Origin: Elusimicrobiales bacterium
GTDB taxonomy: Bacteria > Elusimicrobiota > Elusimicrobia > Elusimicrobiales > UBA9959
Reading direction: 5' to 3'
Length of the DNA stretch: 64,000 nucleotides
Assembly (NCBI GenBank): GCA_041665305.1
Contig: JBAYJD010000008.1
Span: forward strand, 9,209 to 73,208
Shown: positions 476 through 61,941 of the stretch, one piece after another
How positions within the stretch are numbered: position 1 is the first letter of the stretch
Layout of the letters: each line of letters starts with the position of its first letter
Position numbers and translations under genes: made by a program
The notes under the pieces: model-generated
The model's input: the letters and a program-made list of their open reading frames with translations, nothing else
The model's database searches: none
Told to the model about the DNA's origin: nothing

Positions 476-543
476 CGCAGCATGAGGGCACGAAGTCATG
501 AAGGCGATATTTAAAACTTTGCGGCTTCGCGGTTTATGAATAT

Positions 544-714: not shown

Positions 715-768
715 GACCGGCTTTGTGAGCCTGGCCGCCCATGACTTTGTGCCCTTTGTTTTTTGTAT

Positions 769-44281: not shown

Positions 44282-44300
44282 CTGCCATAAAAATTGCTCC
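44282..44300 (+). promoter_or_regulatory. variant -24/-12 element, copy 1 (upstream of the sigma-54-like gene)
   Basis: CTGCCATAAAAATTGCTCC, i.e. TGCCAT-N5-TTGCT with the same spacing as TGGCAC-N5-TTGCW. Lies 39 nt before the ATG at 44339. Confidence 0.6.
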
Positions 44301-44338: not shown

Positions 44339-45397
44339 ATGAGCAAATTCCATAAATTCGGTTTCAACCATTCCGCAAGAACTAAAGCGGCGGCTATGGG
44401 CGCTATGAAGCTGGCGCAGATGTCCGAAATGTCGGAAGGCGAATTTGAAAGCTTTCTGAAGAAGATCGAAGATAACCGTTTTTTTAAATTGCTTAAAGCA
44501 TCCGGCGCCGTCAGCCTGGCGGAATTCCCGAATGCGCGTTATGCCGCAAAAAAATACGCCGGCTACGGGCTTAAACTGTCCTCCGGAGGTCTGCCGGAAC
44601 TAGCCGACGGCAAAGGCGATCTGGTCGGCCTGATACAGGGTATAGGCCAGGAAAAATTTGAAACCTGCTTCCTGAAAGACGCGGCCATGAGTGACGTAGA
44701 GCGGGCAGAGGAATGCGACATAACCGTCAAAGACGCCGCCCGCCTGCGTGATTTCGTCAACCGCGCGTTTATACAGGCTGAATTTGAAAGCGCGCCCGAA
44801 GCTCCTGTGTCGGAAGTGTTCAGTGTCGTGGCCGGCATAGAGCTTGAAAACGGCAAGCCTCTCCTGGCGTTCTTTCACCGGGAAATCTGGAAAGGCTGTT
44901 ATAAAGTGGACGGGGAAAAACTTTCAGAAGCGTTGAAAGGCCTCCCCGCCTCTGAACAAACCGCCGTGGAAAAGCTTGTAAGGCGTATGGAACTGGCGGA
45001 CAAGCGAAAATCCACGCTTTACCGCGCGCTGGAAATAGTTATGGAGCGGCAAACCGAGTACCTGATAACCGGAGAGCCTGTGCGCAGGGCGCCGTTGCCG
45101 CAGAAAGTTCTGGCAGCGGAACTTGAAGTCCATCCCAGCGTTCTTAACCGGCTTATCTCAAATAAATCCATACAGATGCCTTGGGGCACCGAAGCGCCTA
45201 TGTCGGTGCTGCTGCCCAGCTCTAAAGCCATAAATTTAGAGCGGCTATACGCCATAGCCGTTGAAAATCCTGGTATGAACGACACTGAGTTGCGCGCCGA
45301 GCTTAAAATCCGCCACGGCGTAGAATTATCCCGCCAGTCCATAGTGCAATACCGCAAAGATTTATCATTGTCCAGGAATACTTCCAGCACGCTGTAA
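44339..45397 (+). CDS. short divergent sigma-54 (RpoN)-like factor
   Basis: The C-terminal half aligns by eye with RpoN. Pre-HTH region KRKSTLYRALEIVMERQTEYL. HTH LPQKVLAAELEVHPSVLNRLISNKSIQMPWG (compare MHESTISRVT..KY..TP.G). RpoN-box-like SRQSIVQYRKDL (compare ARRTVAKYR). N-terminus MKLAQMSEMSEGEFESFLKKIEDN resembles region I. About 352 aa against the usual ~450-500. Confidence 0.65.
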   Translation: MSKFHKFGFNHSARTKAAAMGAMKLAQMSEMSEGEFESFLKKIEDNRFFKLLKASGAVSLAEFPNARYAAKKYAGYGLKLSSGGLPELADGKGDLVGLIQGIGQEKFETCFLKDAAMSDVERAEECDITVKDAARLRDFVNRAFIQAEFESAPEAPVSEVFSVVAGIELENGKPLLAFFHREIWKGCYKVDGEKLSEALKGLPASEQTAVEKLVRRMELADKRKSTLYRALEIVMERQTEYLITGEPVRRAPLPQKVLAAELEVHPSVLNRLISNKSIQMPWGTEAPMSVLLPSSKAINLERLYAIAVENPGMNDTELRAELKIRHGVELSRQSIVQYRKDLSLSRNTSSTL

Positions 45398-45531: not shown

Positions 45532-45550
45532 CTGCCATGAAAATTGCTCC
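45532..45550 (+). promoter_or_regulatory. variant -24/-12 element, copy 2
   Basis: CTGCCATGAAAATTGCTCC. Lies 46 nt before the lanA1 ATG. Confidence 0.6.
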
Positions 45551-45595
45551 ATAGAAGGTGTAGGCGGTCAAAACAAGCTAAGGAGAACGAACCAA

Positions 45596-45688
45596 ATGAC
45601 TAAAGTACTTGAACTGCAGAAACTGGAAACCGGATCAGAGGGCGAGACCCGCTTGGGCAGTTGGATCAGCAACAGCTGCGGGCAATAG
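45596..45688 (+). CDS. class III lanthipeptide precursor (30 aa), absent from the ORF track
   Basis: MTKVLELQKLETGSEGETRLGSWISNSCGQ. RBS aaggag. Leader VLELQ motif. Core S-x-x-S-x-x-C. Confidence 0.8.
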   Translation: MTKVLELQKLETGSEGETRLGSWISNSCGQ

Positions 45689-45724
45689 TGAGTGTGCCGA
45701 TATTAAACAATAGGAGAAAATAAA

Positions 45725-45826
45725 ATGAACACGATACTTGAGTTGCAGAAACTGGAAGTAAAGTCGGAAAACGAGACTCGCGGGGGAAGCTGGATCAGCA
45801 ACTGCTGCGGCGGGCAGAACGAATGA
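45725..45826 (+). CDS. class III lanthipeptide precursor (33 aa), absent from the ORF track
   Basis: MNTILELQKLEVKSENETRGGSWISNCCGGQNE. RBS aggag. Leader ILELQ motif. Core SWISNCC. Confidence 0.8.
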   Translation: MNTILELQKLEVKSENETRGGSWISNCCGGQNE

Positions 45827-45838
45827 GCGGTAGGATAA

Positions 45839-45872
45839 CTCCGGAGGTGGGGAGATTCGGCCACCTCCGGAG
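45839..45872 (+). terminator. strong hairpin between precursor genes and lanKC (attenuator or mRNA stabiliser)
   Basis: Perfect 12-bp stem ctccggaggtgg / ccacctccggag with a 10-nt loop. No clear U-tract. Confidence 0.5.
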
Positions 45873-45889
45873 CGGATTGTTAAGTTCGG

Positions 45890-48556
45890 GTGGGTAATGA
45901 TATGAATAGCGCAAACAACTTGAATTACTACCTGTTCGCAGACAAACGGTTCTATGAGCCCATGGATTATTGCGTGGTAAATGAGGGCGATTATTTTGAT
46001 TTCGTCCGAAGCCAGGCTGATGCGGAATGGAAGTTTGTCAGAAGCGGTATCTGGATAAACTGTATATACCTTAAACATACGATGCCTCTTCAGGGCTGGA
46101 AAATACATTTGTCGGCGACTCATTCGGATTCTGAAGGCATTTTCAGCGCGGCGGCAGAGTTTCTTATGGCGAACAAGGTGACTTTTAAGTTCCTGTTAGA
46201 CAAAAAAACATTGGCGATAACCAATTCAAAAGGCTGGTCTCGCGGCGCTTCCGGGAAATTTATGACGGTGTATCCGACGGATCCGGAGCACTGCAAGTGG
46301 CTGCTGGAAAAACTGCATTCACTGACGGCGGATTTTTGCGGCCCGTATATCCTCTCTGATATGCGTTATAAAGACAGCAAAGTCCTGTACTACAGATATG
46401 GCGGATTCAGGCCGAATTTACGGCTTGATGTGAATGGGAAACGTATCCCGGTGCTGGTTTCCCCTGATGGAAAAGAGGAGGCCGATGTGCGGCCGCCGTA
46501 TTACCGTCTCCCCGGATGGGTGGATGAGATATTCCCGAAGAAGAATACAAATGAGTCTGGTGGCGGATTGAATAACGGGAGATATGCAGTTGAGAGATCT
46601 CTGCATTTCTCCAATACAGGCGGGATATATATCGCCTATGACAATATCGGGAAAAAAAGAGTTGTGCTGAAAGAGGCGCGTGCGCATGTCAACGCGTTCG
46701 CGGAAAATGTGGACGCCGCCAGAATGCTTAAGAGGGAGTATGATATCCTGAAAAAAGTCGGGAACTGCGGCATCGCGCCGGAGCCGGTTGAATTATTCAG
46801 GGAATGGGAGCACCTTTTCCTGGCGGAAGAATATCTGGAGGGTTATATCACGCTTCACGCTTTCGCCGCGCAGAACAGTATTCTGCTGGAGGCGCGCCCT
46901 ACCGAAGAGAAGGTTAAATCCTACCTGGAAAAATATATCGCAATTTTCAGAAAACTCGCGGGAATTATTGAGGCCCTTCATTCCCGGAATATCATATTCG
47001 GGGATTTTTCGGTCAATAATGTCCTGGTCAATCCCGCCACGCTGGATATAAAAATTATCGACCTGGAAGGGGCGCTTGTGGAGGGCGAGGAGGAAGCTTA
47101 TAAACTTTTTACACGCGGGTTTGCCGCCGTCGAGCAGGTCAAGGGGGCGGCGCCTACGCGGGAAAGCGATTATTACGCATTCGGCGCGATAATGCTGTAT
47201 ATGCTGACGCATATAAACGGGATTCTGGATTTAAAGCCTGATGCCGGAACTGAAGCATTGCAGATGGTGGGCCGGGATTTTGGCATACCTGTAAAGTTGA
47301 GAAGGATTATAAATACCCTCATGCACTCCGATCCCGCGAAGCGGCGGGGCCCGGGTGTTTTGCGCGATCAGAAGCAGGAAACTGCTTTAAGGAAGACATG
47401 CGCGGTCAGATTGTCCGCAGCTGCTCCCCGGTTGTCCAGGAAGTACATTACTGATACCGTGCGGTCGGCATGCAGCTTTATTGAATCGAGCGCGGACTAC
47501 GCCAGGAAAGACAGGCTCTTTCCCGCAGACCCGGAAATTTTTGAAACGAATCCGCTCAGTCTTGCGCATGGGGCCGTAGGGGTTCTTTATACATTATCAA
47601 AACTCGGACGCAAGCCTGCTCCCGAAATGCTGCAATGGGTGCGCCAGCATGAAATTTCCGGCAAAAATTGTCCGCCCGGCTTATATCCGGGAATGTCCGG
47701 CATAGCCTGGGGACTGCTTGAGCTTGGCGATAAGGCTGGCGCCGAGGCTGTGTTCGGTAAAACATTCAATTCCCCGCTTTTAGCTGTTTCTTCATCGCTG
47801 TATACCGGCCTGGCCGGTTGGGGGATGACCAATCTTAAGTTCTGGCTGGCCACCCGCAAGGAAATTTACCTGGACAATGCCAAAAAGGCGGGGGAAACAT
47901 TGCTTGATTCCGCGCGCAACGATTCTCACGGTGCGCACTGGCCTGATCAGGCCGGCAAAGTGCCTATCGGGCTGGCGCACGGAGCGGGAGGAATAGGTCT
48001 TTTCCTGCTGTATCTTTACGCGGCCACCGGCAATCAAAAATACCGGCAAAAAGCCGTGGAGGCATTGGATCACGACATCGCTTATGCCGATGCGTTCGGA
48101 AACGGTAATATGGCCTGGGCGAAGACAGCCGGAGAGAACGGGGCGCTTTACCCTTACTGGGAATACGGCAGCGCCGGTATCGGAATTGCCTGCCTGCGCT
48201 ATTTCAGCGTGTTAAAGGAACCTAAGTACATGAAACTTGTGGAAAAGATATATGAAAGCTGCGCGACAAAATATGCGATTTTCCCAGGAAGAAATATGGG
48301 CATGGCAGGTCTGGGCGAGTTTCTGCTTGACGCTTATGCCGTGACAAAAGACGTAAAATACCTCAATAGCGCGCACAGTGTCGCAAGCGGATTCAAACGT
48401 TTTGCGATACGAAGCCCAAAAGGCGTCGCGTTCCCCGGCGACGGTCTGGCACGGATAAGTTGTGATTACGCCGCCGGGATGAGCGGGATCATACTGTTCC
48501 TCGACCGGCTGGTGTCAGGCCGGCCTGCGGATTTTATGCTTGATGAATTGCTTTAA
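45890..48556 (+). CDS. class III lanthipeptide synthetase (LanKC: lyase-kinase-cyclase)
   Basis: Central kinase-like VVLKEARAH, FGDFSVNNVLVN, IIDLEGA. C-terminal LanC-like GxxG repeats (SLAHGAVG, GMSGIAWG, GLAGWG, GLAHGAGG). The Zn-ligand positions read WEYGSAG and GRNMGMAG rather than WCxG and CHG, as expected for class III. Start is GTG 45890 or ATG 45902. Confidence 0.85.
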   Translation: MGNDMNSANNLNYYLFADKRFYEPMDYCVVNEGDYFDFVRSQADAEWKFVRSGIWINCIYLKHTMPLQGWKIHLSATHSDSEGIFSAAAEFLMANKVTFKFLLDKKTLAITNSKGWSRGASGKFMTVYPTDPEHCKWLLEKLHSLTADFCGPYILSDMRYKDSKVLYYRYGGFRPNLRLDVNGKRIPVLVSPDGKEEADVRPPYYRLPGWVDEIFPKKNTNESGGGLNNGRYAVERSLHFSNTGGIYIAYDNIGKKRVVLKEARAHVNAFAENVDAARMLKREYDILKKVGNCGIAPEPVELFREWEHLFLAEEYLEGYITLHAFAAQNSILLEARPTEEKVKSYLEKYIAIFRKLAGIIEALHSRNIIFGDFSVNNVLVNPATLDIKIIDLEGALVEGEEEAYKLFTRGFAAVEQVKGAAPTRESDYYAFGAIMLYMLTHINGILDLKPDAGTEALQMVGRDFGIPVKLRRIINTLMHSDPAKRRGPGVLRDQKQETALRKTCAVRLSAAAPRLSRKYITDTVRSACSFIESSADYARKDRLFPADPEIFETNPLSLAHGAVGVLYTLSKLGRKPAPEMLQWVRQHEISGKNCPPGLYPGMSGIAWGLLELGDKAGAEAVFGKTFNSPLLAVSSSLYTGLAGWGMTNLKFWLATRKEIYLDNAKKAGETLLDSARNDSHGAHWPDQAGKVPIGLAHGAGGIGLFLLYLYAATGNQKYRQKAVEALDHDIAYADAFGNGNMAWAKTAGENGALYPYWEYGSAGIGIACLRYFSVLKEPKYMKLVEKIYESCATKYAIFPGRNMGMAGLGEFLLDAYAVTKDVKYLNSAHSVASGFKRFAIRSPKGVAFPGDGLARISCDYAAGMSGIILFLDRLVSGRPADFMLDELL

Positions 48557-50280: not shown

Positions 50281-50299
50281 CTGCCATAAAAATTGCTCC
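50281..50299 (+). promoter_or_regulatory. variant -24/-12 element, copy 3
   Basis: CTGCCATAAAAATTGCTCC. Lies 43 nt before the ATG at 50342. Confidence 0.6.
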
Positions 50300-50341: not shown

Positions 50342-50509
50342 ATGAACGCAATGCAGATGAACCTTAACAATACGGACGAAAATAACTTCACTTCCGGGTT
50401 CAACCGTGCGCCTGAGTTGGAGGATGTGTTTATGTCTGGTTTCAACCGCGCGCCAGAGCTGGAAGAGAGTTTTACTTCCGGTTTCAATCGCGCTCCCGAA
50501 CTGGCCTAA
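50342..50509 (+). CDS. repeat-containing RiPP precursor (55 aa), absent from the ORF track
   Basis: MNAMQMNLNNTDENNF-TSGFNRAPELEDVF-MSGFNRAPELEESF-TSGFNRAPELA. RBS aaaggag. Three 14-codon units with SGFNRAPEL invariant while 8 of its 9 codons differ synonymously between units. Confidence 0.8.
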   Translation: MNAMQMNLNNTDENNFTSGFNRAPELEDVFMSGFNRAPELEESFTSGFNRAPELA

Positions 50510-50566: not shown

Positions 50567-51703
50567 ATGACAAAACCATTTTTCTCTTATTCCACTCCAC
50601 GAATAAACAGCCTTGTATTCAAGCTGGTGGACTATTGCAATCAAGGTTGCACTTATTGCTACCGTGAAAACGACAAAGAGCGTCCAGTGCGCATAATGTC
50701 AGATGAACTGATAGAAACTACTATCGTGAAATATATAGATTTTCTTAAGTCCAAAGGAAACGCCCGCAGCGTAGTATATCTGATCTGGCATGGCGGGGAG
50801 CCATTGCTGGCAGGAATCAGTAAGTTCAGGACGATAATGGAAATACAGGCGCAGCTTGCGGCCAGGTATGAGGTCGGTTTTGTGAATTCCGTGCAAACCA
50901 ATGGGGTCTATATTGATGAGGAATGGGCAAAGTTCTTCAACGAAAACAGGTTCCTGGTCGGGGTGAGCCTGGACGGCCCTAAGCAGATTCATGATATCTA
51001 CAGAAAAAACAAAGGCGGAGTTTCCACCTTCGCGGAGACGATGCGCGGGATCAAATTGCTGCAAGCGCACAAAATAAAAACTAATCTTATCGGTGTTGTA
51101 ACCAATGAGAGCGCTCCGCACGCCGATATGATGTATGAGTTTTTCAGGGATTTTGGCGTGCAGGACATAGACCTCATCCCTTGTTTTGATTATAACGATC
51201 CGCTTACCTTGTCGCCGGAGCTGTACCGCGCTTTTATGGTTACGATTTTTAAGCGGTGGCGTTCGGACGGATTTGCGCCGCTGAGAATAAGGTTCCTTTC
51301 CGATGTTTTGAAAAAGATCTCGGTGCTGCGTTCCGGCGGTTGCGCTACTATAGGCTGCGAGCTTATGGGCGGCTGCGGGCAGAACTGGTCCATAGGCGTG
51401 GAAGGGGAAGTATATCCGTGCGAGTGCCTCACCCCGATAAAGCGCATGGAGCTGGGAAATATTATGGAATCTTCTTTTGAAGGGCTCATGTCCTGCGGCG
51501 CTTTCACTAACGTGAAATCGGAGAACAATGATATCGCGCAAGATTGCCGCGACTGCGACGTGCTGGCGGTATGCCGGGCAGGCTGCCTCAACAGGCGTCT
51601 TAAGGATTATAAACTTGACGGGAAAAGGGACCCTTACTGCCTTGCCCGCCGTGACGTGATCAAACTTGCCCTGGAGGATGCGTATGCAATCCCGGCTAAA
51701 TAA
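50567..51703 (+). CDS. radical SAM/SPASM-domain peptide maturase
   Basis: CNQGCTYC (CxxxCxxC), WHGGEPLL. C-terminal Cys clusters GGCATIGCELMGGCGQ...YPCEC and CRDCDVLAVCRAGC typical of SPASM auxiliary clusters. Confidence 0.85.
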   Translation: MTKPFFSYSTPRINSLVFKLVDYCNQGCTYCYRENDKERPVRIMSDELIETTIVKYIDFLKSKGNARSVVYLIWHGGEPLLAGISKFRTIMEIQAQLAARYEVGFVNSVQTNGVYIDEEWAKFFNENRFLVGVSLDGPKQIHDIYRKNKGGVSTFAETMRGIKLLQAHKIKTNLIGVVTNESAPHADMMYEFFRDFGVQDIDLIPCFDYNDPLTLSPELYRAFMVTIFKRWRSDGFAPLRIRFLSDVLKKISVLRSGGCATIGCELMGGCGQNWSIGVEGEVYPCECLTPIKRMELGNIMESSFEGLMSCGAFTNVKSENNDIAQDCRDCDVLAVCRAGCLNRRLKDYKLDGKRDPYCLARRDVIKLALEDAYAIPAK

Positions 51704-52904: not shown

Positions 52905-52983
52905 GCTCATTTTGAGATAGTAGTTTTGTCTAATCTTCATTGAAAGGATTTTCAAAATGAAAATGTTTATATCAGAATGATAG
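52905..52983. promoter_or_regulatory. enhancer-like repeat array upstream of the third precursor operon
   Basis: GCTCATTTTGAGA (52905), CTTCATTGA (52935), TCAAAATGA (52952), TCAGAATGA (52972). Same order and near-identical spacing as the array at 50127-50205. Confidence 0.55.
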
Positions 52984-53069
52984 GTTTTGTTTGTTCTTAA
53001 ATCCCTGAAAATATCGTCAGGCAGTCATTTCTCCAATGGGGGCGTATGAAATAGGTTGGTTGTCCGCCC

Positions 53070-53088
53070 CTGCCATAAAAATTGCTCC
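53070..53088 (+). promoter_or_regulatory. variant -24/-12 element, copy 4
   Basis: CTGCCATAAAAATTGCTCC. Lies 40 nt before the ATG at 53128. Confidence 0.6.
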
Positions 53089-53127: not shown

Positions 53128-53304
53128 ATGAAACGGATAACGATCAAAATAGCAATAGCGGGGATATCGGCTTTGTTTATAATGGCAGTTTTACTGAAGC
53201 CGCAGCACTTGACTGGCGGCGAGGCCAGCAAAAAGCAGACCGTAGTTCACTATACCAGCGTTGGAGTGTTTCCCAATTCGCCGCTGTTCTATGCGGAGAA
53301 CTAA
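53128..53304 (+). CDS. small peptide (58 aa) with hydrophobic N-terminus, candidate precursor or secreted peptide
   Basis: MKRITIKIAIAGISALFIMAVLLKPQHLTGGEASKKQTVVHYTSVGVFPNSPLFYAEN. RBS acggagg. The longer track ORF from 53056 would begin inside the promoter element. Confidence 0.6.
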   Translation: MKRITIKIAIAGISALFIMAVLLKPQHLTGGEASKKQTVVHYTSVGVFPNSPLFYAEN

Positions 53305-53442
53305 GCAAAGACCCACGGTGGATATAGGTCCAAAGGCCCTTACAAACTTATGAGTCACAGACTACACTATTGTATGATTCTTGACAGCTCGGGGGATTGG
53401 CCTCGGAATATCTGCGACCGGACCTTGATCATGTGTATCCAG

Positions 53443-53487
53443 GGAAAGCAGAATCGAATTTGCTTTTCCTCTTTTAATTGAAAAGCA
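53443..53487 (+). promoter_or_regulatory. two mutually exclusive hairpins (terminator/antiterminator-like)
   Basis: Hairpin 1 is ggaaagca / tgcttttcc (53443-53469), followed by tctttt. Hairpin 2 is tgctttt / aaaagca (53461-53487). Both use the same tgctttt segment. Confidence 0.4.
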
Positions 53488-53529
53488 GTTTCTGAAATGG
53501 CAGAATACAGCAGATAAGGAGAATGCGAT

Positions 53530-53730
53530 ATGACGAACAAAGATAAAGTGATTGTATCGTTCCTGGTGTCCATCGGGATATTTTCTTCCGCCCAAGCGGT
53601 TCGCTATGTTAAGACTCTTGAAATTAGTGAGAAGAACTCCATGATATCCGTGGCCAAACTATCTAATTCCGGCATAGTTCTTTGTGAAGATTCTACCAGT
53701 CGTTCCGGTTTAGATAATCATAAAGGATAA
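53530..53730 (+). CDS. small protein (66 aa) with signal-peptide-like N-terminus, translationally coupled to the radical SAM gene
   Basis: MTNKDKVIVSFLVSIGIFSSAQA... RBS aaggag. Its TAA overlaps the ATG of the next gene (TAATG). Confidence 0.55.
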   Translation: MTNKDKVIVSFLVSIGIFSSAQAVRYVKTLEISEKNSMISVAKLSNSGIVLCEDSTSRSGLDNHKG

Positions 53731-54629
53731 TGGATGGGCACGCTTTGGGGCAGACCGTCGATATTCGTAAGCTAGGAATAGTTGTCGGTACCGCATGCAA
53801 TTTTAATTGCAGCCATTGCTTGATCAAGAAGGAAGACAGGCGTGAACGACTGTCTCTGAAAGAGGTTCGGCTATTGTGCGATACGGTGGCCAGATATCGT
53901 CCGAAGTCGATTTTGTTCACCGGAGGGGAACCGACCTTTTGGATCAAGGAAATAAACGAAATTATTTCCTCCCACCCTTGCCCTGAAAACCTTAAAATCA
54001 CTTTGACCACTAATGGCCATTTCGCAGGGTCGGTCTCTTTGGCGAAGAAGGTGCTCTCCTCGTTTACCAGACTTGATTATGTGCAATTGTCGTATGATGT
54101 TTTCCATAAAATCTTCCTGTCGTTTTCAAAAGCTAAAAATCTTCATTCAGCGTGTACGGAGTTGCGGGTCGGTTTCAGCGCGATTCTAACGATGTCGTCT
54201 CCGTTGGACCTGCTTCTCGTTAAACAGTTGCGAAGTTTCGGGCGGTTCAAGATAGGGGTGCAAAAGGTCGCTAGTATTGGAGAGGCGAAGAGAAACGGCA
54301 TTCGGTTCATCTTCCCATGCTTTGACGAGAAAGTACTCTCTAAATATTGTCCCAACAGGAACAGTCTCGGGTATATTTGCGGACGCGGATTCTCGATCTG
54401 TTGTGCGGAACTGGCCTTTAATAATTCTATGCCCGGGGTGTTTCACTCAACGCTGGGTGAACATTTGGCCAGTCCTTTATACGGATTGATGCGGAAACAC
54501 AATTTTGCGGAACTGATGAAAATATTGCGGGTACCTAAAAAGTCCCTGCTGCCGGATCATTCCTCGGAGTGTGTGCTGTGCGACCATATTTTTAAAAATG
54601 CCAGGAGGAAAGTGCGGTTGACGCCGTAA
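53730..54629 (+). CDS. radical SAM protein with C-terminal Cys-rich (twitch/SPASM-like) region
   Basis: CNFNCSHC (CxxxCxxC), FTGGEPTF. C-terminal CPNRNSLGYICGRGFSICC and CVLC. Confidence 0.8.
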   Translation: MDGHALGQTVDIRKLGIVVGTACNFNCSHCLIKKEDRRERLSLKEVRLLCDTVARYRPKSILFTGGEPTFWIKEINEIISSHPCPENLKITLTTNGHFAGSVSLAKKVLSSFTRLDYVQLSYDVFHKIFLSFSKAKNLHSACTELRVGFSAILTMSSPLDLLLVKQLRSFGRFKIGVQKVASIGEAKRNGIRFIFPCFDEKVLSKYCPNRNSLGYICGRGFSICCAELAFNNSMPGVFHSTLGEHLASPLYGLMRKHNFAELMKILRVPKKSLLPDHSSECVLCDHIFKNARRKVRLTP

Positions 54630-54636
54630 ATCGTGT

Positions 54637-55332
54637 ATGAAATCAAACCCCCGTCTTGTTCAGAAGGAAAAAGGAAAAATAACCTATCAAATGCCGGATT
54701 TTACCCGGCTTAATACTTCGGCGATAGATAAGCTTGCCTGGCCGAAGGAAATCCCGGTCTTGTGGCTGAAATACTACGAAAACCTCGACGGCTGCTACGA
54801 GGCGTTGGATAAAAGGATATCCCGCAAATATATCGTGCGGGTAATATACTCCGCCGATAAGAAAGATATTCATTTGAAGGGGAGAAAGGAATCTGCCTGC
54901 GCGATAAAAGCCAGGGAATCGCTTACAACGGCGGAATTATTGGCACTATATCTTGAAACACATGCTAAATCCTTTATCGCGCCGTGGGCCGGACAACTTG
55001 ATAGTAAATATATAGACGAGGTTTCCTCGTTCATTAAAGAAGATCTGCCGATCTCAAAGTCGTTGAGCTTCTTTAAGGATAAATCCCCAGTGGGATTGGT
55101 GCTCCTGACGGAGTTAGGCAGCGGAGCTGGGCTTATTTCATGGATATGGTTCGCGCCGTCTTTAAGCATTGCTGAAAGACGGAAAGCGCACAATCTCTTT
55201 GCCGCCTGGCTGAGGAACGGGAAATATCCGCAAATTAAAAGTGTCGTTCATTCTTTCAACCTGCGCTCTAACAGATTCTTTATAAAAATGGGATTCCATA
55301 CTCAATGCATTGCTATCACCAGACGAAGCTGA
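54637..55332 (+). CDS. GNAT-family acetyltransferase-like protein (tentative)
   Basis: C-terminal pattern GLVLLTEL...ISWIWFAP...RRKAHNLFAAWL...NLRSNRFFIKMGF resembles GNAT motifs A/B. The N-terminal half is unassigned. Confidence 0.5.
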   Translation: MKSNPRLVQKEKGKITYQMPDFTRLNTSAIDKLAWPKEIPVLWLKYYENLDGCYEALDKRISRKYIVRVIYSADKKDIHLKGRKESACAIKARESLTTAELLALYLETHAKSFIAPWAGQLDSKYIDEVSSFIKEDLPISKSLSFFKDKSPVGLVLLTELGSGAGLISWIWFAPSLSIAERRKAHNLFAAWLRNGKYPQIKSVVHSFNLRSNRFFIKMGFHTQCIAITRRS

Positions 55333-56711
55333 TCTTTCTGCTTCTGGCCGCTTGCGGCGTTCTCTGCGGTTGCCGGAAGGCGGAACAGCGGACGGATACA
55401 TGGACAGTGTTGCTCAGTGACCTTCCCGTACGCCTGTTTGTCGCTGACGCCGGGCTTAATGGGACTTTTTACCTTTTAAAACAGACGCATGAGCCGCTTT
55501 TTAGGCAGGATGACGGGGAAATTTTTTCTTCTCGGCTTTTGGAGAAGTGGAGCAGGGATATCCGGTCTTCTGAATATCTTTTCTGTCCCGACACCTCTTT
55601 GCGTTTTGACGCAGATAACACTTTTTCAATGGCATTCTTTTATAAATATATACGGAAAACCGCTAAGGCGTTCGACCAGGGGGCGGAGGTTGAAAAACAT
55701 GGTGAATGCGTTAGGATAAAATTGGGAAGTCACTCGAATTTCCTGGCTTACCTGTCTCTTTTCGAAAACGCTCCTACTTTGAAAAGGACGGAAAAGATAG
55801 AGGTCGGACTCGGCGCTTTTTCCGTTGAAACATTGTCCGCCGAAAAGGTCGTGCTTAAAAGAAAGCAGAGAGTTTCCAATGGCTATAACGCGATAGTGTT
55901 CCACCAGTATAAGGGCGGCGGTGACCCAAATTTACAGAATAGGCAGATAAGTGATTTCAATAATATCCCATCATTCGAGATACCGGAATGGGTAAAGAAA
56001 GATTATCGGCATTTTGATAGTCCTATACTCCGGTCGATAAGCCTTATAATAAATTACCCCGATAAGGCGGTCCGGAAAGCGGTCTATAACTGTCTTAACT
56101 ATGATTCCCTTCGGCGCGCCTATGTGCCGCGGCGAAAAAACTTTTATGATATATGCAATATACTTCCCGTTGGGGTTCCCGGTGCCGAAGCCGGGCCTCC
56201 GAGGCAGGAATGCTATGGTATAGCGAGAATAAACCGTCATTTTGAATTGACATTCCTGAACCTTGCCTATAATAATGATAAAACGCTGAAGGAAGTGTTA
56301 TCGGCTTTTCATAAAAGAACGGGGATAAAGATCGTCGTCAGGACATATCCTGATAACCAGATCGATGCGGCGCTTCTTCAATCCCCACGCCGGTATAATC
56401 TGGCGATAGTGGTTATGGATGCTGTTCGTCCTAATCATGAAGCGTTCTTTGATTATTTAATCAAGAAAAACGGATACTTTGATACCGATAATCCCGCACT
56501 AACACACTTGTATGAAAAAATGTTGAAAGAACCGGATGAGGAAAAGAAAAATAGTTTAGCGAAAGTCATAGCAGAAAAGCTGGATTCCGAAGCGCTGGTT
56601 TTGCCTCTGTATCAGAATGTGGCGACTTTCTATTATCCGAGAAACATAAAAAGTATTATTCTCGGCAGAGGTTTTATCGAATATCCAGAGGTTGCGGAGT
56701 TCAGATGGTAA
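55305..56711 (+). CDS. lipoprotein, solute-binding protein family 5-like (peptide/oligomer binding)
   Basis: Lipobox-like LLAACGVLCGC. Size and LLKQTHEPLF / periplasmic-binding fold pattern. Overlaps the kinase gene start by 7 nt. Confidence 0.5.
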   Translation: MHCYHQTKLIFLLLAACGVLCGCRKAEQRTDTWTVLLSDLPVRLFVADAGLNGTFYLLKQTHEPLFRQDDGEIFSSRLLEKWSRDIRSSEYLFCPDTSLRFDADNTFSMAFFYKYIRKTAKAFDQGAEVEKHGECVRIKLGSHSNFLAYLSLFENAPTLKRTEKIEVGLGAFSVETLSAEKVVLKRKQRVSNGYNAIVFHQYKGGGDPNLQNRQISDFNNIPSFEIPEWVKKDYRHFDSPILRSISLIINYPDKAVRKAVYNCLNYDSLRRAYVPRRKNFYDICNILPVGVPGAEAGPPRQECYGIARINRHFELTFLNLAYNNDKTLKEVLSAFHKRTGIKIVVRTYPDNQIDAALLQSPRRYNLAIVVMDAVRPNHEAFFDYLIKKNGYFDTDNPALTHLYEKMLKEPDEEKKNSLAKVIAEKLDSEALVLPLYQNVATFYYPRNIKSIILGRGFIEYPEVAEFRW

Positions 56712-58864
56712 AAATTATAGGCCGGGCTTTTTCTTATAACTGGAAATACTACAGCGCGGCGGTGGCCGTGTTTGTGGTTTTCTGGCAGATGTTTTCCGTG
56801 TTCTCTGCCGTGCGCGTAGCTGATGATAATCTGCTAACCGCCATGCGGCAGAATGCGGCCTATTTTGAAAAAGCATTTCTTAAAGGTGATGTGTTTGAGA
56901 CTCAGCGCATAATGTGGCGCATAAAGAACGACAATATAAAGCACATAACATTCCACCCCACTGAGTTTAACGGCAGTAAGTGGATATTTAAAGAGGCCAT
57001 AATCGGGAATATTTACGACAGACCTCGCGCGCAGCTAACGTGCAATGTGCCTTTTATATCAAATGGCGCAGTGCTTGGCCAGCTGGAATATGTTATAGAT
57101 CTGGTGGATGTCAACGCTGTCGTCTTCGGTGAGAACTATATTTTATTTATAACCATAGTGGCTTTTTTTATGGGCCTTTTGTTTCTGTCCAATGTCGGGG
57201 CTATTAAAACTATTTTCAGCATAGAGCGCTGTGTTACAGAAACAAACGCTCTGGTCGATGCCGGTAAACACGCCGACATTCAGGATTCTATACAACGCAG
57301 CATCCAGTTGCTGCCGCAAAGTTTGCGCGATACACCATTCGCCGTGTTGATAAGCGGGTTGGCGGAAGTGCTGAAAAAAGCCTCCCGTCTTGAAAGTGAC
57401 CTTGCTGTTTCAAAAGCCACATCTGATATGGCGGTGCAAGTGGCGCATGACATTCGGTCGCCGCTGGCGGCGTTGGATACAGCGCTGAATAAAACTGATC
57501 AGCTCCCGGAACAACAGCGCATTATGGTGCGCCATGCGGTGAACCGGATACGCGATATCGCCAACAATCTCCTTGAAAAGAACCGGCAGCAGGCCAAAAC
57601 CTCTTCAGTGGCCATATCCCAGCCCACTGATGCCCGCGAAGCTCAGGAAACGCGCCTGCTTTCAAGCGCTATAGACCCGGTTATAACCGAGAAACGCCTG
57701 CAATTTGAATCAAAGCCGGGAATAAACATTGATTTTGAGCTGACAAAGGAATCTTACGGCTTGTTCGCTAAAATACAGCCGGTGGAATTCAGGCGCATAA
57801 TTTCAAATCTTGTGAATAATGCCGTTGAAGTGTTGGGCGATCAAGGCAAGGTCTCCGTAGGCTTGGGCCAGGATGCCGGGAATATTGTTTTAACTGTCGC
57901 CGATAACGGCAAAGGCATTCCGGCTGAAATACTGGCGAAACTCGGCCAGAGGGGAGAAACGCACGGGAAGGCTGGCGGATCGGGTCTGGGGCTTTTCCAT
58001 GCAAGAACAACAGTGGAAAGTTTGGGTGGCAGTCTTGCGATAGCTTCCGAAGTAGGCAAAGGCACGACGATTACAATAAAATTGCCCAGGGCGGAGGCTC
58101 CAAATAATTTTGTGCCTGTGCTTGAACTTGTTCCCGGCCGGCCCGTGGTAGTCTTGGATGATGACGCTACAATACACCAGATCTGGGATGGCCGGTTTGA
58201 GTCCGCCAGGGTTCAGGAGCGCAATATCGAAGTAATTCATTTCAGCGAGCCGGATAAACTGCGCGAATGGGTTAAAACCAACACGGCAAAGGCCGAAAAA
58301 GCGGTTTATCTGTTTGACTATGAGTTGATCGGTTATAAAGAAACGGGACTTAGCCTTGCCGAAGAGCTGGGGATATGCGGCACGACAATATCTGTGACCA
58401 GCCGTTACGACGAGAAACGCATAATTGATGAGTGCAAGCGTCTTAAAGTGCGGATGATCCCCAAGGGGCTGGCAAGCCTTGTGCCGATAGCCATCCAAAA
58501 GCCTGATGCAAAACCGGAAGCAGTGCCTCCCTCCGGCCAGGTAGACGCCGTTTTAGTTGATGATGATAAATTGGCCCGCATGAGTTGGGAAATGGTCGCC
58601 AAGGCAAAAGGCGTAAACCTGGTTGTCTTCGACAATCCGGGCGATTTCCTCGCCCGTATAGAGGAATTCCCCAAAGAGACGCCTGTTTATCTTGATTCCG
58701 AGCTGGACGACGACCAGGAAAACGGCGTTAAAGGCCAGAATATAGCCGTGGATCTGCACAACAAAGGCTATGCCGATATCACGCTTGAGACCGGCCACAT
58801 GCCGGAAGATTTCGCCCACTTGCCCTGGCTTAAAGTGATAGACAAAACTCCGCCCTGGAGTTAA
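56705..58864 (+). CDS. membrane sensor histidine kinase with two C-terminal receiver-like domains
   Basis: TM, ~130-aa periplasmic loop, TM. H-box VAHDIRSPLAAL. NLVNNAVEV, DNGKGIP, GGSGLGLFHA. Then VVVLDDD...LFDYEL and AVLVDDD...YLDSEL modules. Confidence 0.85.
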   Translation: MVKIIGRAFSYNWKYYSAAVAVFVVFWQMFSVFSAVRVADDNLLTAMRQNAAYFEKAFLKGDVFETQRIMWRIKNDNIKHITFHPTEFNGSKWIFKEAIIGNIYDRPRAQLTCNVPFISNGAVLGQLEYVIDLVDVNAVVFGENYILFITIVAFFMGLLFLSNVGAIKTIFSIERCVTETNALVDAGKHADIQDSIQRSIQLLPQSLRDTPFAVLISGLAEVLKKASRLESDLAVSKATSDMAVQVAHDIRSPLAALDTALNKTDQLPEQQRIMVRHAVNRIRDIANNLLEKNRQQAKTSSVAISQPTDAREAQETRLLSSAIDPVITEKRLQFESKPGINIDFELTKESYGLFAKIQPVEFRRIISNLVNNAVEVLGDQGKVSVGLGQDAGNIVLTVADNGKGIPAEILAKLGQRGETHGKAGGSGLGLFHARTTVESLGGSLAIASEVGKGTTITIKLPRAEAPNNFVPVLELVPGRPVVVLDDDATIHQIWDGRFESARVQERNIEVIHFSEPDKLREWVKTNTAKAEKAVYLFDYELIGYKETGLSLAEELGICGTTISVTSRYDEKRIIDECKRLKVRMIPKGLASLVPIAIQKPDAKPEAVPPSGQVDAVLVDDDKLARMSWEMVAKAKGVNLVVFDNPGDFLARIEEFPKETPVYLDSELDDDQENGVKGQNIAVDLHNKGYADITLETGHMPEDFAHLPWLKVIDKTPPWS

Positions 58865-59034
58865 CCCTTTAAATCCTTCTCAAGCCGGGACAGGCAATCC
58901 ATGATATCCTGCCCCGCTTCTTTCATAAGGGCAAGCAATTCCAGCTTTTTCTCAAGCGTGCAGGTCTTGAACATTTCCGCGATTGTTTTAAGGCTCGTGC
59001 ATTGCGAGCGTATCTTGTGAAGCGGCTTTTCCAT
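58861..59034 (-). CDS. small helical protein, possible Hpt-like phosphorelay component (speculative)
   Basis: MEKPLHKIRSQCTSLKTIAEMF... has a His in an HxxxxS-like context resembling Hpt helices. Sits between the kinase and the regulator. Start ambiguous (59034-59079). Confidence 0.3.
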   Translation of the reverse strand: MEKPLHKIRSQCTSLKTIAEMFKTCTLEKKLELLALMKEAGQDIMDCLSRLEKDLKG

Positions 59035-59038
59035 TTTG

Positions 59039-60400
59039 TTATTTTCTTCCATCCGGTTCATCGCCCTTGTTCGGTCCAAATTTCTTTAACCTGGCATAAA
59101 GCAGGTTGGTGGAGATCTTAAGATTGGCCATTACCTTGCTTTTGTTGCCGTTGTTCTCCTGCATATTGCGGCGGATTATCTCGTAGGTGAACAGTTCGGA
59201 CGCGGCGTCCAGGCCGTTTTTTACGGCGTATTTATACTGCGCGTTCGTAAGGAACCCGCCTGGCGGCAGGGGGTTAAGTTCCTGCGAAAGGTGCTTACGG
59301 ATAGTTTCAAGCGTGACGCGGTTTCCCGTGCCTGAAACAAGCAGGTCCACCAGCTTCTTCAATTCCCGGATATTGCCCGGCCATTCGTATTGGAGCATGA
59401 AAGTTCTGGCGTCCGGCGCAAATGATAATTGCCGTGCCCCGCTCGTGAATTGCCGTATGAGGGGGAAAATATCGCAGGAGCGTTCGCACAACGGCTTAAG
59501 GTTGACGGTCAGGCCGTGTATGCGCTGAAAGAAGTCCAGCCGCAGTTTCCCTTGCGTTATAAGCGCCTTAAGGTCTTCTAGCGTGGCGCTGATTATCCTG
59601 AAATCGGAACGCTCCGGTTTGTCGGAGCCCAGCGGGTAAAACGATTTCTCCTCAATGGCTTTAAGCAGCTTGGTCTGCATATTAAGGCTCATAGAACCTA
59701 TTTCATCCAAAAACAATGTGCCGTTGTTGGCCTGCAAGAGTCGGCCCTTTCTGTTTTCATTTGCCCCGGTGAATGCGCCTTTCCTGTAGCCGAACAATTC
59801 GGCTTCCATCAATTCCTCGGTATAGGCCGAGCAATTCATGGCGACGAATTCGCCGGAACGTCCGGAATATTTGTGAATTATCCGGGCCAGGCAGGTTTTT
59901 CCTGTGCCGGTTGGCCCAAGGATAAGGATAGGGGAGCCGGAGGCCGCGTATTTAAGCGCTTCGGTGACATTGGCGCGCGTTGCCGGGTCTTCGGTTATAA
60001 ATTCCTCGGAGAAGACTTTATTGAGGTTCCCGCTTTTGCCGCGCTGCAGGTATTTGGCGATAACCGCGCTGATATTGGCTTTCTCGTTGCCTTTGATATA
60101 GAAATCGTCGCAGCCGAGTTCATAGGCCTTATTTATGATATCGTCGGAATCCGAGCTTGTCATGACCACGGAGTAAAACCCTTTTGATCTGGCGTCCGCG
60201 ATAAGTTTTAAACCCGAATAATCATCATCAAGCCCCAGCATCAGGTCCAGGAAGCATAGGTCATAAGAACCGCCGGCCAGTTTTTTCCTGGCGGTCTTTG
60301 TATCTTTTGCGAAGTCCACGGCATGGCCTGTCAACTGGGCCGCCATGACCGCCTGCGCCGGATTTTCGTCTTCAACCACCAGAATCTTCAGTTTGTCCAT
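59039..60400 (-). CDS. sigma-54-dependent response regulator (NtrC-type enhancer-binding protein)
   Basis: Receiver ILVVEDE...CFLDLML. AAA+ Walker A GPTGTGKT, intact GAFTGA loop, Walker B LFLDEIG, EWPGNIREL. C-terminal Fis-type HTH KSKVMANLKISTNLLYARLKKFG. Confidence 0.9.
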   Translation of the reverse strand: MDKLKILVVEDENPAQAVMAAQLTGHAVDFAKDTKTARKKLAGGSYDLCFLDLMLGLDDDYSGLKLIADARSKGFYSVVMTSSDSDDIINKAYELGCDDFYIKGNEKANISAVIAKYLQRGKSGNLNKVFSEEFITEDPATRANVTEALKYAASGSPILILGPTGTGKTCLARIIHKYSGRSGEFVAMNCSAYTEELMEAELFGYRKGAFTGANENRKGRLLQANNGTLFLDEIGSMSLNMQTKLLKAIEEKSFYPLGSDKPERSDFRIISATLEDLKALITQGKLRLDFFQRIHGLTVNLKPLCERSCDIFPLIRQFTSGARQLSFAPDARTFMLQYEWPGNIRELKKLVDLLVSGTGNRVTLETIRKHLSQELNPLPPGGFLTNAQYKYAVKNGLDAASELFTYEIIRRNMQENNGNKSKVMANLKISTNLLYARLKKFGPNKGDEPDGRK

Positions 60401-60729: not shown

Positions 60730-61941
60730 ATGAAACGAGTATTCGTACTGGCGTCGGGGCTCATCACCGCCGCCGCCGTCTGCGCGCAGGCGTCCCAGAA
60801 GATAATAAGCTTTGAGACCGCCTACCGTGGCGCTATAGACAAGAATATAGAAGAAGTAGGTGGGAAGGTAACGCGCAAATTCACCCTGATAGACTCCGTG
60901 GTTGCGATATTCCCCGACAATGCGAAGACCGACGCGATTATGTCCATTAAGGGCGTGACCGCCGTTTACGAGGATAAATACAGGAAATGGCTGAACGAAG
61001 CGCCAGTTTCATTGAGTGCGGTCCAGTTCCCTTCGGTAAAGGAAATTATCGCCAAGGCCCGCTCCGGCGAAGGCTGGAACAGGCCCGCACCGTTCGCGAC
61101 CAGACCGTCCGAAACCGAGATACCTTGGGGCGTTAAGCGCGTTAACGCTTCCGCTGCCTGGGGAACATTGACCGGCAAAGGCGTCAAAGTCTGTATCATA
61201 GACACCGGCGTGGACGGCAATCATCCCGACTTGGCGCCTAATTATAAGGGCGGTTACAATGCCGTGGTCTCTACCGAGCCTCCGACCGACGAACACGGCC
61301 ACGGCACACACGTCGCCGGCACCATAGCCGCCGCGTTGAACGATAAGGGCGTGGTCGGAGTGGCCCCCAACGCCGAAATATACGGGGTCAAGGTCCTTGG
61401 CAAGGACGGCTACGGTCAGGATTCCTGGGTGGCCGCAGGAGTGGAATGGGCCATCATGAATCACATGAACGTGACCAACATGAGCCTCGGTGACAAGGAA
61501 GAGTCCGTCCCGCTGAAGCAAATGATGGAAAAAGCCGACCAGGCCGGGATAACCCAGGTTGTGGCGGCCGGAAACTTGATGACATTCTGGGGCACCTGCC
61601 CGGTCATGTATCCCGCCAAGTACGACGTGGCCATCGCGATCTCCGCCTCAGATTCATCCGACAAGATAGCGTCTTTCTCCTGCCGTGGACCCGAAGTGGA
61701 CCTGATAGCGCCCGGCGCCAGGATTAACTCCACTAAACCCGGCGGCGGCTACCAAACGATGGACGGGACCTCGATGGCCTGTCCTCATGTGGCGGGCCTG
61801 GCTGCGCTGGCGGTGAACGCCGGTGCCAAAACCCCGGCCGAAGTGCGCGCGGCCTTGGTCAAGGCGGCCTCTCCTCTCGCCGGCCTGAGGCCCGAGGAAG
61901 AGGGCGCGGGCCTGGTGAATGCGGCCAAACTGCTGAAGTAA
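60730..61941 (+). CDS. secreted subtilisin-like serine protease (peptidase S8)
   Basis: Signal peptide. Propeptide-like N-terminus. Catalytic triad contexts IDTGVD, HGTHVAG, GTSMACPHVAG. Confidence 0.9.
   Translation: MKRVFVLASGLITAAAVCAQASQKIISFETAYRGAIDKNIEEVGGKVTRKFTLIDSVVAIFPDNAKTDAIMSIKGVTAVYEDKYRKWLNEAPVSLSAVQFPSVKEIIAKARSGEGWNRPAPFATRPSETEIPWGVKRVNASAAWGTLTGKGVKVCIIDTGVDGNHPDLAPNYKGGYNAVVSTEPPTDEHGHGTHVAGTIAAALNDKGVVGVAPNAEIYGVKVLGKDGYGQDSWVAAGVEWAIMNHMNVTNMSLGDKEESVPLKQMMEKADQAGITQVVAAGNLMTFWGTCPVMYPAKYDVAIAISASDSSDKIASFSCRGPEVDLIAPGARINSTKPGGGYQTMDGTSMACPHVAGLAALAVNAGAKTPAEVRAALVKAASPLAGLRPEEEGAGLVNAAKLLK

Follow-up and report, generated by a model that had tools for sequence, protein, structure and literature searches.

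The LuxP/LuxQ-LuxU-LuxO circuit of Vibrio has a periplasmic binding protein encoded beside a hybrid histidine kinase, and the gene for a small histidine (His) phosphotransfer protein, luxU, lies directly downstream of that for a REC-sigma54 activator, luxO, in the luxOU operon. Here we describe a locus of the Elusimicrobia whose logic and gene layout appear closest to this circuit. It was found in a 64,000-nt stretch (the window) of contig JBAYJD010000008.1, which belongs to an Elusimicrobiales metagenome-assembled genome (ENA ERZ27249449; NCBI tags WCW52_03020 and WCW52_03030), and it consists of four genes at the 3′ end of a multi-peptide island. These genes encode a lipoprotein of the binding-protein type, a sensor histidine kinase, a 63-residue protein with a conserved His and an NtrC-type enhancer-binding protein. 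The module probably senses an adjacent modified peptide and switches on the peptide island, including its own operon. As to how it does so, we lean, with slightly better than even confidence, towards a phosphorelay of four steps that depends on the binding protein and governs a set of sigma-54-type peptide operons, its own among them.

The components differ from those of the Lux circuit in several respects. LuxP is a Peripla_BP_4 protein that binds AI-2, whereas the lipoprotein appears to be a remote member of family 5. With its ~114 residues, LuxU folds as an HPt four-helix bundle, in contrast to the predicted DHp-like hairpin of ~60 residues described below. LuxO drives small RNAs via the housekeeping sigma-54, while the present activator would act on peptide operons and on a cassette-specific sigma-54-like gene. 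No orthology to LuxP, LuxQ or LuxU was detected by sequence, and LuxO and LuxN were only mid-ranking NCBIfam matches. Several receptors can feed one carrier in the Lux circuit (PMC5394107; PMC8050422); here, two or three cassettes are found in several genomes.

The type of binding protein appears closest to that of the Vibrio CBP-ChiS pair, in which an SBP_bac_5 protein regulates a hybrid sensor kinase via its periplasmic domain (PMC8050422, Table 1; PMC12704726). CBP also serves an ABC transporter and binds sugar, whereas no permease gene is adjacent here and a peptide is the probable ligand. ChiS is itself the DNA-binding protein, and its signal is not relayed to any sigma-54 activator. The type of carrier appears closest to Spo0B of Bacillus and ChpT of Caulobacter. 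The module is not orthologous to the Lux circuit, to CBP-ChiS or to these carriers. Spo0B and ChpT have their relay His on a DHp-type hairpin (PMC9981736; PMC3433190), and the hairpin described here would similarly form a four-helix bundle as a dimer and pass phosphate to and from receivers. The two keep a C-terminal CA-like α/β domain (pseudo-kinases of ~190–250 residues), whereas here the hairpin stands alone, at 58–63 residues. The AioR activator of the arsenite sensor AioX/AioS/AioR is sigma-54-dependent. In that system, a signalling-only binding protein, a membrane kinase and the activator are likewise encoded together (PMC8050422), but the binding protein is of the phosphonate-binding type, the kinase is not hybrid, the ligand is inorganic and there is no phosphotransfer protein. 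Finally, in the peptide pheromone systems agr and ComCDE, which diversify into pherotypes, and in the YydF/YydG epipeptide system, as apparently here, a hypervariable signal peptide co-diversifies with a receptor component and a modifying enzyme, and the operon is apparently autoinduced. Those are systems of Firmicutes, with direct membrane-kinase or stress sensing and with no binding protein, phosphorelay or sigma-54.

A sequence-only reading of the window had proposed the four genes, and all four open reading frames (ORFs) were confirmed at the coordinates it gave (Table 1). Gene content, order, coupling and conservation were established by comparison with 11 neighbourhoods found by exact protein and 49 loci of species-representative genomes. 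Genes for the lipoprotein, kinase, small protein and activator are kept together in ~45 Elusimicrobia genomes, and the cassette recurs at 49 loci among the species representatives. Its common order is a 62–70-residue precursor, a radical SAM enzyme of ~290 residues, usually the 231-residue protein, the binding protein and the kinase. The four-gene arrangement is far beyond chance, and the module is a genuine regulatory unit that occurs phylum-wide in Elusimicrobia. At least seven genomes contain two or three cassettes, in which the binding proteins and precursors differ and the kinases are near-identical. Two cassettes lie in tandem in L046 and another two share one contig (L017 and L034); further same-genome sets are L025/L030, L016/L042, L024/L036/L045, L019/L039, L018/L032 and L023/L046. 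These paralogous cassettes suggest that several peptide channels converge on a single carrier and activator. A literature search on the cassette returned no earlier description, an absence that does not prove novelty.

Table 1. Features of the peptide island and its four-gene sensory module, in order along the window (positions in nt of the window; kinase segments in residues)
Feature	Position	Strand	Length	Remarks
-24/-12 element	44283–44297	+		5′ of the sigma-54-like gene
Sigma-54-like protein	44339–45397 (listed ORF starts 44294)	+	~350 aa	Pfam Sigma54_DBD, E 7.8e-11
-24/-12 element	45533–45547	+		TGCCATGAAAATTGC; 5′ of the lanthipeptide synthetase region
Lanthipeptide synthetase	45890–48556			RamC_N/Pkinase/LANC_like
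ABC exporter				
-24/-12 element	50282–50296	+		5′ of the three-repeat precursor gene
Three-repeat precursor	50342–50509		55 aa	three SGFNRAPEL repeats
SPASM radical SAM enzyme	50567–51703			cyclophane or anaerobic-sulfatase-maturase type
MFS transporter				
Upstream activator-site-like repeats	52941–52984	+		TTTTCAAAATGAAAA ... TCAGAATGATAGG; ~90–130 nt 5′ of the -24/-12 element
-24/-12 element	53071–53085	+		TGCCATAAAAATTGC; heads operon 53128–58864
Small ORF at operon head	53128–53304	+	58 aa	N-terminal hydrophobic segment; first gene past the promoter; gene call on the source contig; conserved in L004
Precursor-like peptide	53530–53730	+	66 aa	candidate signal
Radical SAM enzyme	53730–54629	+	299 aa	distantly YydG-like; presumed precursor modifier
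231-aa protein	54637–55332	+	231 aa	found in the majority of cassettes, 3′ of the radical SAM gene and 5′ of the binding-protein gene
Lipoprotein	55305–56711	+	468 aa	remote family-5 (cluster C) solute-binding protein (predicted); extracytoplasmic
Hybrid sensor histidine kinase (probable)	56705–58864	+	719 aa	
Kinase, TM1	residues ~15–36			
Kinase, periplasmic segment	residues 37–143			window 56813–57133
Kinase, TM2	residues 144–166			
Kinase, DHp domain				His248
Kinase, CA domain	residues 359–465			
Kinase, inserted receiver-like domain	residues ~478–600			D538
Kinase, terminal receiver-like domain	residues ~612–719			D664
Small ORF, DHp-like hairpin (predicted)	58861–59052 (ORF to 59079)	-	63 aa	possibly 66 aa from start 59061; conserved His12
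NtrC-type enhancer-binding protein	59039–60400	-		REC (D52), sigma-54 AAA+, Fis-type HTH

The kinase has a periplasmic stretch of ~107 residues between two transmembrane (TM) segments, an H-box that reads AHDIRSPL, with a weak HisKA match (16.9 bits), and a HATPase_c domain (82 bits, E 4.6e-23); many NCBIfam kinase models align with residues 240–465. Its C-terminal region carries two sets of receiver-like residues, DDD485-487/D538/T565/K587 in an inserted domain and DDD619-621/D664/T696/K714 in a terminal one. In an alignment of 42 orthologues, every Elusimicrobia kinase ends in a receiver-like tail of ~105 residues. D8 and D10 of the tail (the first and third Asp of DDD), D53 (the Asp of IDSEL) and K103 (the Lys of GKxPPW) are invariant, and D9 (the middle Asp of DDD) and T85 (the Thr of TGH) are conserved in at least 90% of the sequences. 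The domain inserted between the CA domain and the tail is found in the window, L004, L014, L025, L030, L040 and L048; it has the same residue set as the tail, and the corresponding residues are invariant.

Searches for the fold of these domains gave sub-threshold matches. Response_reg was the sole Pfam match of five out of five kinase tails tested (E 0.002–0.19), and the top match of the tail profile in the PDB was a hybrid-kinase receiver (E 0.03). A single-sequence AlphaFold2 (AF2) model of the kinase C-terminus was poor (predicted local distance difference test, pLDDT, 46) and gives a weak hint only: receivers made up most of its top 50 Foldseek matches, led by the two-domain RcsC C-terminus, at E values of 0.011 or above. 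The inserted domain had no Pfam match and no PDB profile match, a phmmer search of the C-terminal 254 residues against the PDB gave chance matches only, and hhalign comparisons of the small receiver-like alignments with the receiver of the activator were uninformative (probabilities of 1–11%). Of the kinase architecture proposed in the sequence-only reading, the periplasmic loop and the two receiver-like domains were recovered, while the receiver fold itself stayed below threshold. The protein is probably a hybrid kinase. No other segment of the cassette is as conserved as its periplasmic domain, for which the median pairwise identity is 0.86. This domain matched nothing in Pfam or, by sequence, in the PDB, and may represent a sensor or docking domain not yet described.

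The small ORF overlaps the 3′ end of the regulator gene and is convergent with the kinase gene, with a 4-nt overlap of the two stop codons. Several observations show that the ORF is a genuine gene. A profile of its family gave more than 250 matches at E ≤ 10; those listed, 120 in number, are 58–66 residues long with E ≤ 5e-20. An exhaustive search grouped the family into 105 clusters at 50% identity, almost all of them stand-alone proteins of 41–108 residues. Two long matches of a representative search (P0287 and P0295) are unrelated repeat proteins, and P0221 looks like a chimeric call; these were rejected. In all 12 Elusimicrobia loci that have a complete activator gene, the small gene follows it with an overlap, and this linkage holds even where the kinase is kilobases away. 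The orthologues differ by many synonymous substitutions, which are at least as frequent as non-synonymous ones. The main clade has a near-invariant core of 35 residues, KLLHDLRSKCSSLKSAAELYKDCSxAEKKEMLALM. His12 is invariant in 67 close members; in a broader set of 98 diverse members, conservation of 90% or more is limited to the His and a single Met. A metal or redox site formed by the two conserved cysteines was considered and dropped, as these are lost in L040 and in the wider family.

An AF2 model of the small protein is a confident two-helix hairpin (residues 8–28 and 33–62, pLDDT 90) with His12 in the first helix; the chain ends after the second helix, and a CA-like α/β domain is absent. 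Weak Pfam HisKA matches were obtained for 43 of the 67 close members (best E 0.0027). Comparison of the 98-sequence family with the DHp domains of the 42 cognate kinases by hhalign gave a probability of 86.7% and an E value of 4.4e-6 over 46 columns, and paired the His of the small protein with the phospho-accepting His of the kinase (HDLRS versus HDIRS); an earlier comparison with a shallower profile had covered 19 columns (P 5e-4). Among the Foldseek matches of the hairpin, the DHp domain of HK853 occurred at ranks 2, 4, 5, 6, 8, 15, 25, 27 and 43, none of them significant. The protein is therefore best described as a predicted stand-alone DHp/HisKA-like hairpin, for which the support is moderate and not decisive. 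The sequence-only reading had suggested an Hpt protein on account of the His. The gene and its conserved His held up and the Hpt assignment did not: none of the 67 members matches Pfam Hpt (PF01627) even at E ≤ 10, a hairpin of ~60 residues contrasts with the four-helix bundle of ~110–120 residues of an Hpt domain, and no HPt protein was among the top 50 Foldseek matches of the model. We propose that the hairpin could nevertheless serve as a histidine phosphotransfer protein.

Cassettes outside the Elusimicrobia provide a natural control for such a role. The cassette also occurs in Bdellovibrionota (Oligoflexia, Bacteriovoracaceae and Bdellovibrionaceae; L048, L052, L053, L054 and L060), which points to horizontal spread or an ancient origin; there, the activator gene is at the head of the operon and two of the cassettes have a non-hybrid kinase. 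In these two, both from Bacteriovoracaceae (L052 and L053), the operon that starts with the activator gene also contains the kinase gene. The kinase stops right after its CA domain, with no receiver tail, and no small gene follows the activator gene. The Oligoflexia locus L048 encodes a kinase with both receiver-like domains and two activators, and behind each activator gene lies a small ORF, helical and with an H-box-like motif. These ORFs have no significant match to the small-protein family (E 0.8 or none) and are positional analogues only. Receiver tail and small protein thus co-occur, as a relay requires. The comparison comprises no more than two or three cassettes with a non-hybrid kinase, which belong to another phylum, and its independent contrasts are few. 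The comparison favours the order that had been suggested before, from kinase to receiver to small His protein to regulator: complete Elusimicrobia activators always come with the small gene, and the tail-less Bacteriovoracaceae cassettes lack it.

Several further points weigh against a relay through the hairpin. Sub-threshold matches and conserved motifs are all that speaks for a receiver fold in the tail and in the inserted domain, and the DHp similarity of the small protein is modest. Its profile found only chance matches among PDB sequences (E > 1), and the Foldseek E values of the hairpin were above 0.5, so that nothing was significant, as expected for a two-helix model. The His is missing in a few family members, and the subclade of the window has a Lys, not an acidic residue, next to it (HKIRS). 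A DHp-only phosphotransferase of 60 residues was not found in the literature searched.

The strongest alternative, which we regard as fairly improbable, is a two-component system of the ordinary kind. The kinase would then phosphorylate the regulator with no intermediate, the receiver-like domains would be phosphate sinks or autoinhibitory modules and the hairpin would be a modulator instead of a carrier. The Ser at position His+4 of the hairpin, invariant across the 67 close members, fits this alternative; the His+4 position belongs to the phosphatase motif of HisKA kinases. The hairpin could thus be a receiver-directed phosphatase or anti-activator acting via H-x-x-x-S, with a size and shape like those of Spo0E, or a DHp mimic or kinase-docking inhibitor like Sda. 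A tie between the small gene and the regulator gene would suit a regulator-specific modulator, and the members that lack the His, together with the sub-threshold receiver assignment of the tail, point the same way. The known phosphorelay carriers are either HPt proteins or pseudo-kinases such as Spo0B and ChpT (PMC9981736), and a hairpin without the CA-like domain of the latter is unlike both, which also counts for direct transfer. On the other side, the His is the best-conserved residue over the 98 diverse members; the tail has an invariant acidic pocket, Asp and Lys and a near-invariant Thr, which argues for real phosphorylation; and the family has no consistent match except HisKA, and none to the Spo0E-like Pfam family. 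Moreover, the absence of the small gene from cassettes with a non-hybrid kinase is expected of a relay component and not of a generic modulator of the regulator.

At the output end of the proposed relay, the regulator has a receiver with D52 (Response_reg, E 2.3e-10), a Sigma54_activat domain (E 6.7e-57) with a Walker A motif at 162 and GAFTGA at 208–213, AAA_lid_14, and a C-terminal helix-turn-helix (HTH) at 429–442, so that it is complete and its earlier classification as NtrC-type stands. A probable partner sigma factor is encoded at the other end of the island. Pfam recognises no part of this sigma-54-like protein other than its DNA-binding domain, and its region I is shortened. Its gene adjoins the activator/small-gene pair in L007, L008, L010, L020, L026, L028, L039 and L045, and lies beside a contig-truncated activator fragment in L044; in L010, the sigma-54-like, activator and small genes all overlap within one operon. 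The protein seems to be a cassette-specific sigma-54 paralogue.

A scan of the window for the canonical TGGCAC-N5-TTGC promoter showed no enrichment (50 matches versus 66 expected) and exposed a TGCCAT variant. The window has four copies of a 19-bp element, CTGCCAT[A/G]AAAATTGCTCC[A/G]T, each ~45–55 nt 5′ of a ribosome-binding site (the -24/-12 elements of Table 1). In the related loci there are 71 elements of the -24/-12 type; 52 of them read TGGCAT-N5-TTGCTCTGTAG, the canonical sigma-54 form, which occurs there at equivalent places. The -24 part is TGCCAT (GC) in the window, L004 and L040 and TGGCAT (GG) in the relatives (10 versus 52 overall). In parallel, the RpoN box of the sigma-54-like protein of the window is LSRQSIVQYRKD, while nine relatives have LSRRS[VI]AQYRKD. 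This co-variation of an Arg-to-Gln change in the RpoN box with the loss of the near-universal -24 GG looks like a re-specified pair of sigma-54 paralogue and promoter.

Repeats of the type TTTTCAAAATGAAAA or TCTCAAATGAAAA, with a TGAAAAT core, lie ~95–125 nt upstream, the usual place of activator sites, in 37 of 68 sigma-54-type promoters of the related loci with enough upstream sequence. They are often inverted (TTTTCATTTGAGAATA..TATTCTCAAATGAAAA), sometimes perfectly, and occur in L039 at ~3994 and ~7815. No such repeats were found within 130 nt of the promoter of the sigma-54-like gene of the window (44283). The repeats are probably the binding sites of the activator. Since the sensor operon itself sits behind an activator-type promoter with upstream repeats, the positive feedback proposed earlier is supported.

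At the input end, the lipoprotein has a signal peptide with candidate lipoboxes (LAAC or LCGC). A hydrophobic N-terminal export signal is present in 44 of 44 aligned members, and a strict lipobox pattern in 15. The single sequence matched Pfam SBP_bac_5 (PF00496) over residues 146–348 with 21.1 bits (E 2e-4), under the gathering score of 32.4, and a precomputed PF00496 match exists for only four of 73 clusters of homologues. A profile of the 44 orthologues, in contrast, found NikA, OppA, MppA and related chains in the PDB (25 of the 28 matches listed; best E 5e-6), with the match to solved family-5 proteins spanning both lobes (N-lobe 62–123, C-lobe 317–461). The family-5 assignment of the sequence-only reading was thus borne out by the orthologue profile and not by the single sequence, and we accept a family-5 fold, though a remote one, as the predicted fold. 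This fold is not proof of a peptide ligand, because family-5 proteins bind nickel, sugars such as chitobiose and opines as well as peptides (PMC8050422).

The stop of the lipoprotein gene overlaps the start of the kinase gene, as had been noticed before; the overlap is 7 nt long (AGATGGTAA). Among 41 related cassettes, 32 share exactly this overlap and seven have one of 4 nt (39 of 41 overlapping in total), and the two genes are adjacent in 41 of 41 cassettes with enough flank, which marks them as a conserved, translationally coupled pair. No ABC permease gene was seen beside the pair in the neighbourhoods examined; binding proteins of the signalling type typically have none adjacent (PMC8050422). 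We propose that the lipoprotein may be a ligand-specific adaptor of the kinase.

Nearly all cassettes have a precursor gene directly 5′ of the radical SAM gene. The precursors combine a conserved signal-peptide-like N-terminus and a helix with a hypervariable C-terminal part of ~20 residues, often with Cys; many of the C-termini contain [IVL][IVL][IVL]C. With its charged n-region, its hydrophobic core and AQA, the N-terminus resembles a signal peptide of the Sec type, an odd feature for the substrate of a cytoplasmic radical SAM enzyme. The enzyme matches Pfam Radical_SAM (E 5.8e-11), and its top NCBIfam family is TIGR04078 rSAM_yydG (E 1.9e-13, full length), a likeness to the YydG epimerase that is far under the cutoff. 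The protein encoded between this enzyme and the lipoprotein has no Pfam or NCBIfam match; by eye, its C-terminus (…SNRFFIKMGFHTQC…) is GNAT-like, and an annotated acetyltransferase is present near some relatives.

Divergence was compared across 34 cassettes. Mean pairwise identity is 0.38 for the binding protein, 0.40 for the radical SAM enzyme, 0.44 and 0.15 for the N- and C-terminal parts of the precursor, and 0.76 and 0.62 for the periplasmic domain and the remainder of the kinase. The divergence of the binding protein correlates with that of the radical SAM enzyme (Spearman rho 0.65), of the precursor (0.34–0.44) and of the kinase (0.13–0.18); it tells against the proposal that these correlations are descriptive only and that the pairs are not phylogenetically independent. 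Variable binding proteins and precursors with near-identical kinases are the pattern expected if the binding protein is a peptide-specific adaptor and the kinase a constant transducer. The earlier suggestion that a product of the island is the signal is thus retained in a corrected form. The lipoprotein/kinase pair always follows the genes of the precursor and the radical SAM enzyme, and these two diverge in step with the binding protein. The likely signal is the peptide encoded at 53530–53730, not the lanthipeptide and not the three-repeat peptide. That the lipoprotein binds this neighbouring peptide we infer from synteny and co-divergence only.

A separate doubt, orthogonal to the choice between relay and direct transfer, concerns this ligand. 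The lipoprotein might sense an unrelated extracellular solute (a metal, a sugar, or a nutrient or cell-wall peptide), in which case the module would report on the surroundings and not on self, or serve maturation, export, anchoring or immunity of the peptide while the kinase detects another signal with its own strongly conserved periplasmic domain. We consider this unlikely. The range of family-5 ligands and the nickel-binding proteins at the top of the PDB matches speak for it, as does the Sec-like signal of the precursor, unusual for a radical SAM substrate; the periplasmic domain, as the most conserved part, might itself recognise a constant ligand. Yet few parts of the cassette evolve as fast as the binding protein, and its divergence goes along with that of the radical SAM enzyme and of the precursor; a constant nutrient or metal ligand is hard to reconcile with this. 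The precursor C-terminus is hypervariable, as in pherotype systems, genomes with several cassettes vary the binding proteins and precursors on near-identical kinases, the binding-protein gene is translationally coupled to the kinase gene in nearly all cassettes, and the sensor operon lies behind the same activator-type promoter. The weakest alternative, that the small ORF is an unexpressed chance frame within the overlap of two convergent genes, is suggested by its shortness, its overlap with both neighbours and the lack of any Pfam or NCBIfam match for the single sequence, and is effectively refuted by conservation: the large family, the position kept behind the activator gene even with the kinase elsewhere, the near-invariant core, the synonymous changes and the confident fold prediction.

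Returning to the phosphorelay, its phosphotransfer steps, ligand, sign of response and sigma factor, as we infer them, would be as follows. The adjacent radical SAM enzyme would modify the 66-residue peptide, which would be exported, captured outside the cell by the lipoprotein and presented to the highly conserved periplasmic domain of the kinase. Docking would shift the kinase/phosphatase balance. The phosphoryl group would pass from His248 to a C-terminal receiver Asp (D664, possibly D538 too), onward to His12 of the dimeric hairpin, co-translated with the regulator, and from there to D52 of the enhancer-binding protein. The regulator would then bind the upstream repeats and, with the sigma-54-like factor of the cassette, open the TGCCAT-N5-TTGC promoters from which the sensor operon, the sigma gene and the remaining peptide operons would be transcribed, resulting in positive feedback.

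Along the island, the sigma-54-like gene, the lanthipeptide synthetase and the ABC exporter are followed by the three-repeat precursor with its SPASM enzyme, the MFS transporter, two small ORFs, the second radical SAM enzyme, the 231-residue protein, the four genes discussed here and a secreted S8 protease. The lanthipeptide synthetase region (RamC_N/Pkinase/LANC_like, class III/IV; 45600–48556) lies behind its own TGCCAT-type promoter, and the gap at 45550–45890 probably holds one or more lanthipeptide precursor genes. The top families of the SPASM enzyme are anaerobic sulfatase maturase, DynA and cyclophane-forming maturases, and the product of the three-repeat gene is probably a repeat-type cyclophane (triceptide-like) peptide; this pair of precursor and enzyme also adjoins the kinase in L002. 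The S8 subtilase (60730–61941), divergent from the activator, is a candidate for extracellular processing of exported peptides. Farther away, positions 11000–33000 of the window hold a long run of genes on the same strand with a G+C content of 0.42–0.50, versus 0.55–0.63 in the flanks; this run could be a cluster of the polysaccharide type or one gained by horizontal transfer.

Almost no Elusimicrobia have been cultured and, to our knowledge, nothing is known of their communication or of the regulation of their secondary metabolism. The module would offer a concrete circuit: a modified secreted peptide, a co-diversifying binding-protein receptor, a conserved kinase and a minimal carrier of 60 residues that would feed a sigma-54 activator. 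In its widest form, which we put forward tentatively and hold at well under even confidence, the 58–63-residue protein would be a third structural class of bacterial His phosphotransfer protein, made up of two DHp hairpins and nothing more, and lacking both the CA-like domain and the HPt bundle. Its place would be at the hub of a phylum-wide cell-cell signalling system, in which swappable modules of radical SAM peptide and family-5 protein (pherotype-like, several per genome) feed one conserved chain of kinase, carrier and activator with its own sigma-54 paralogue and matching promoters. If the hairpin does carry phosphate, a DHp hairpin alone suffices for a relay, which would bear on the evolution of Spo0B- and ChpT-type proteins from kinases and would provide a relay part of very small size for engineering. 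A constant kinase that is combined with variable binding proteins and peptides represents a natural plug-in design for ligand specificity, and the activator-type promoters shared by the lanthipeptide, cyclophane-type and epimerase-type operons may give a handle to switch on the silent island in a heterologous host.

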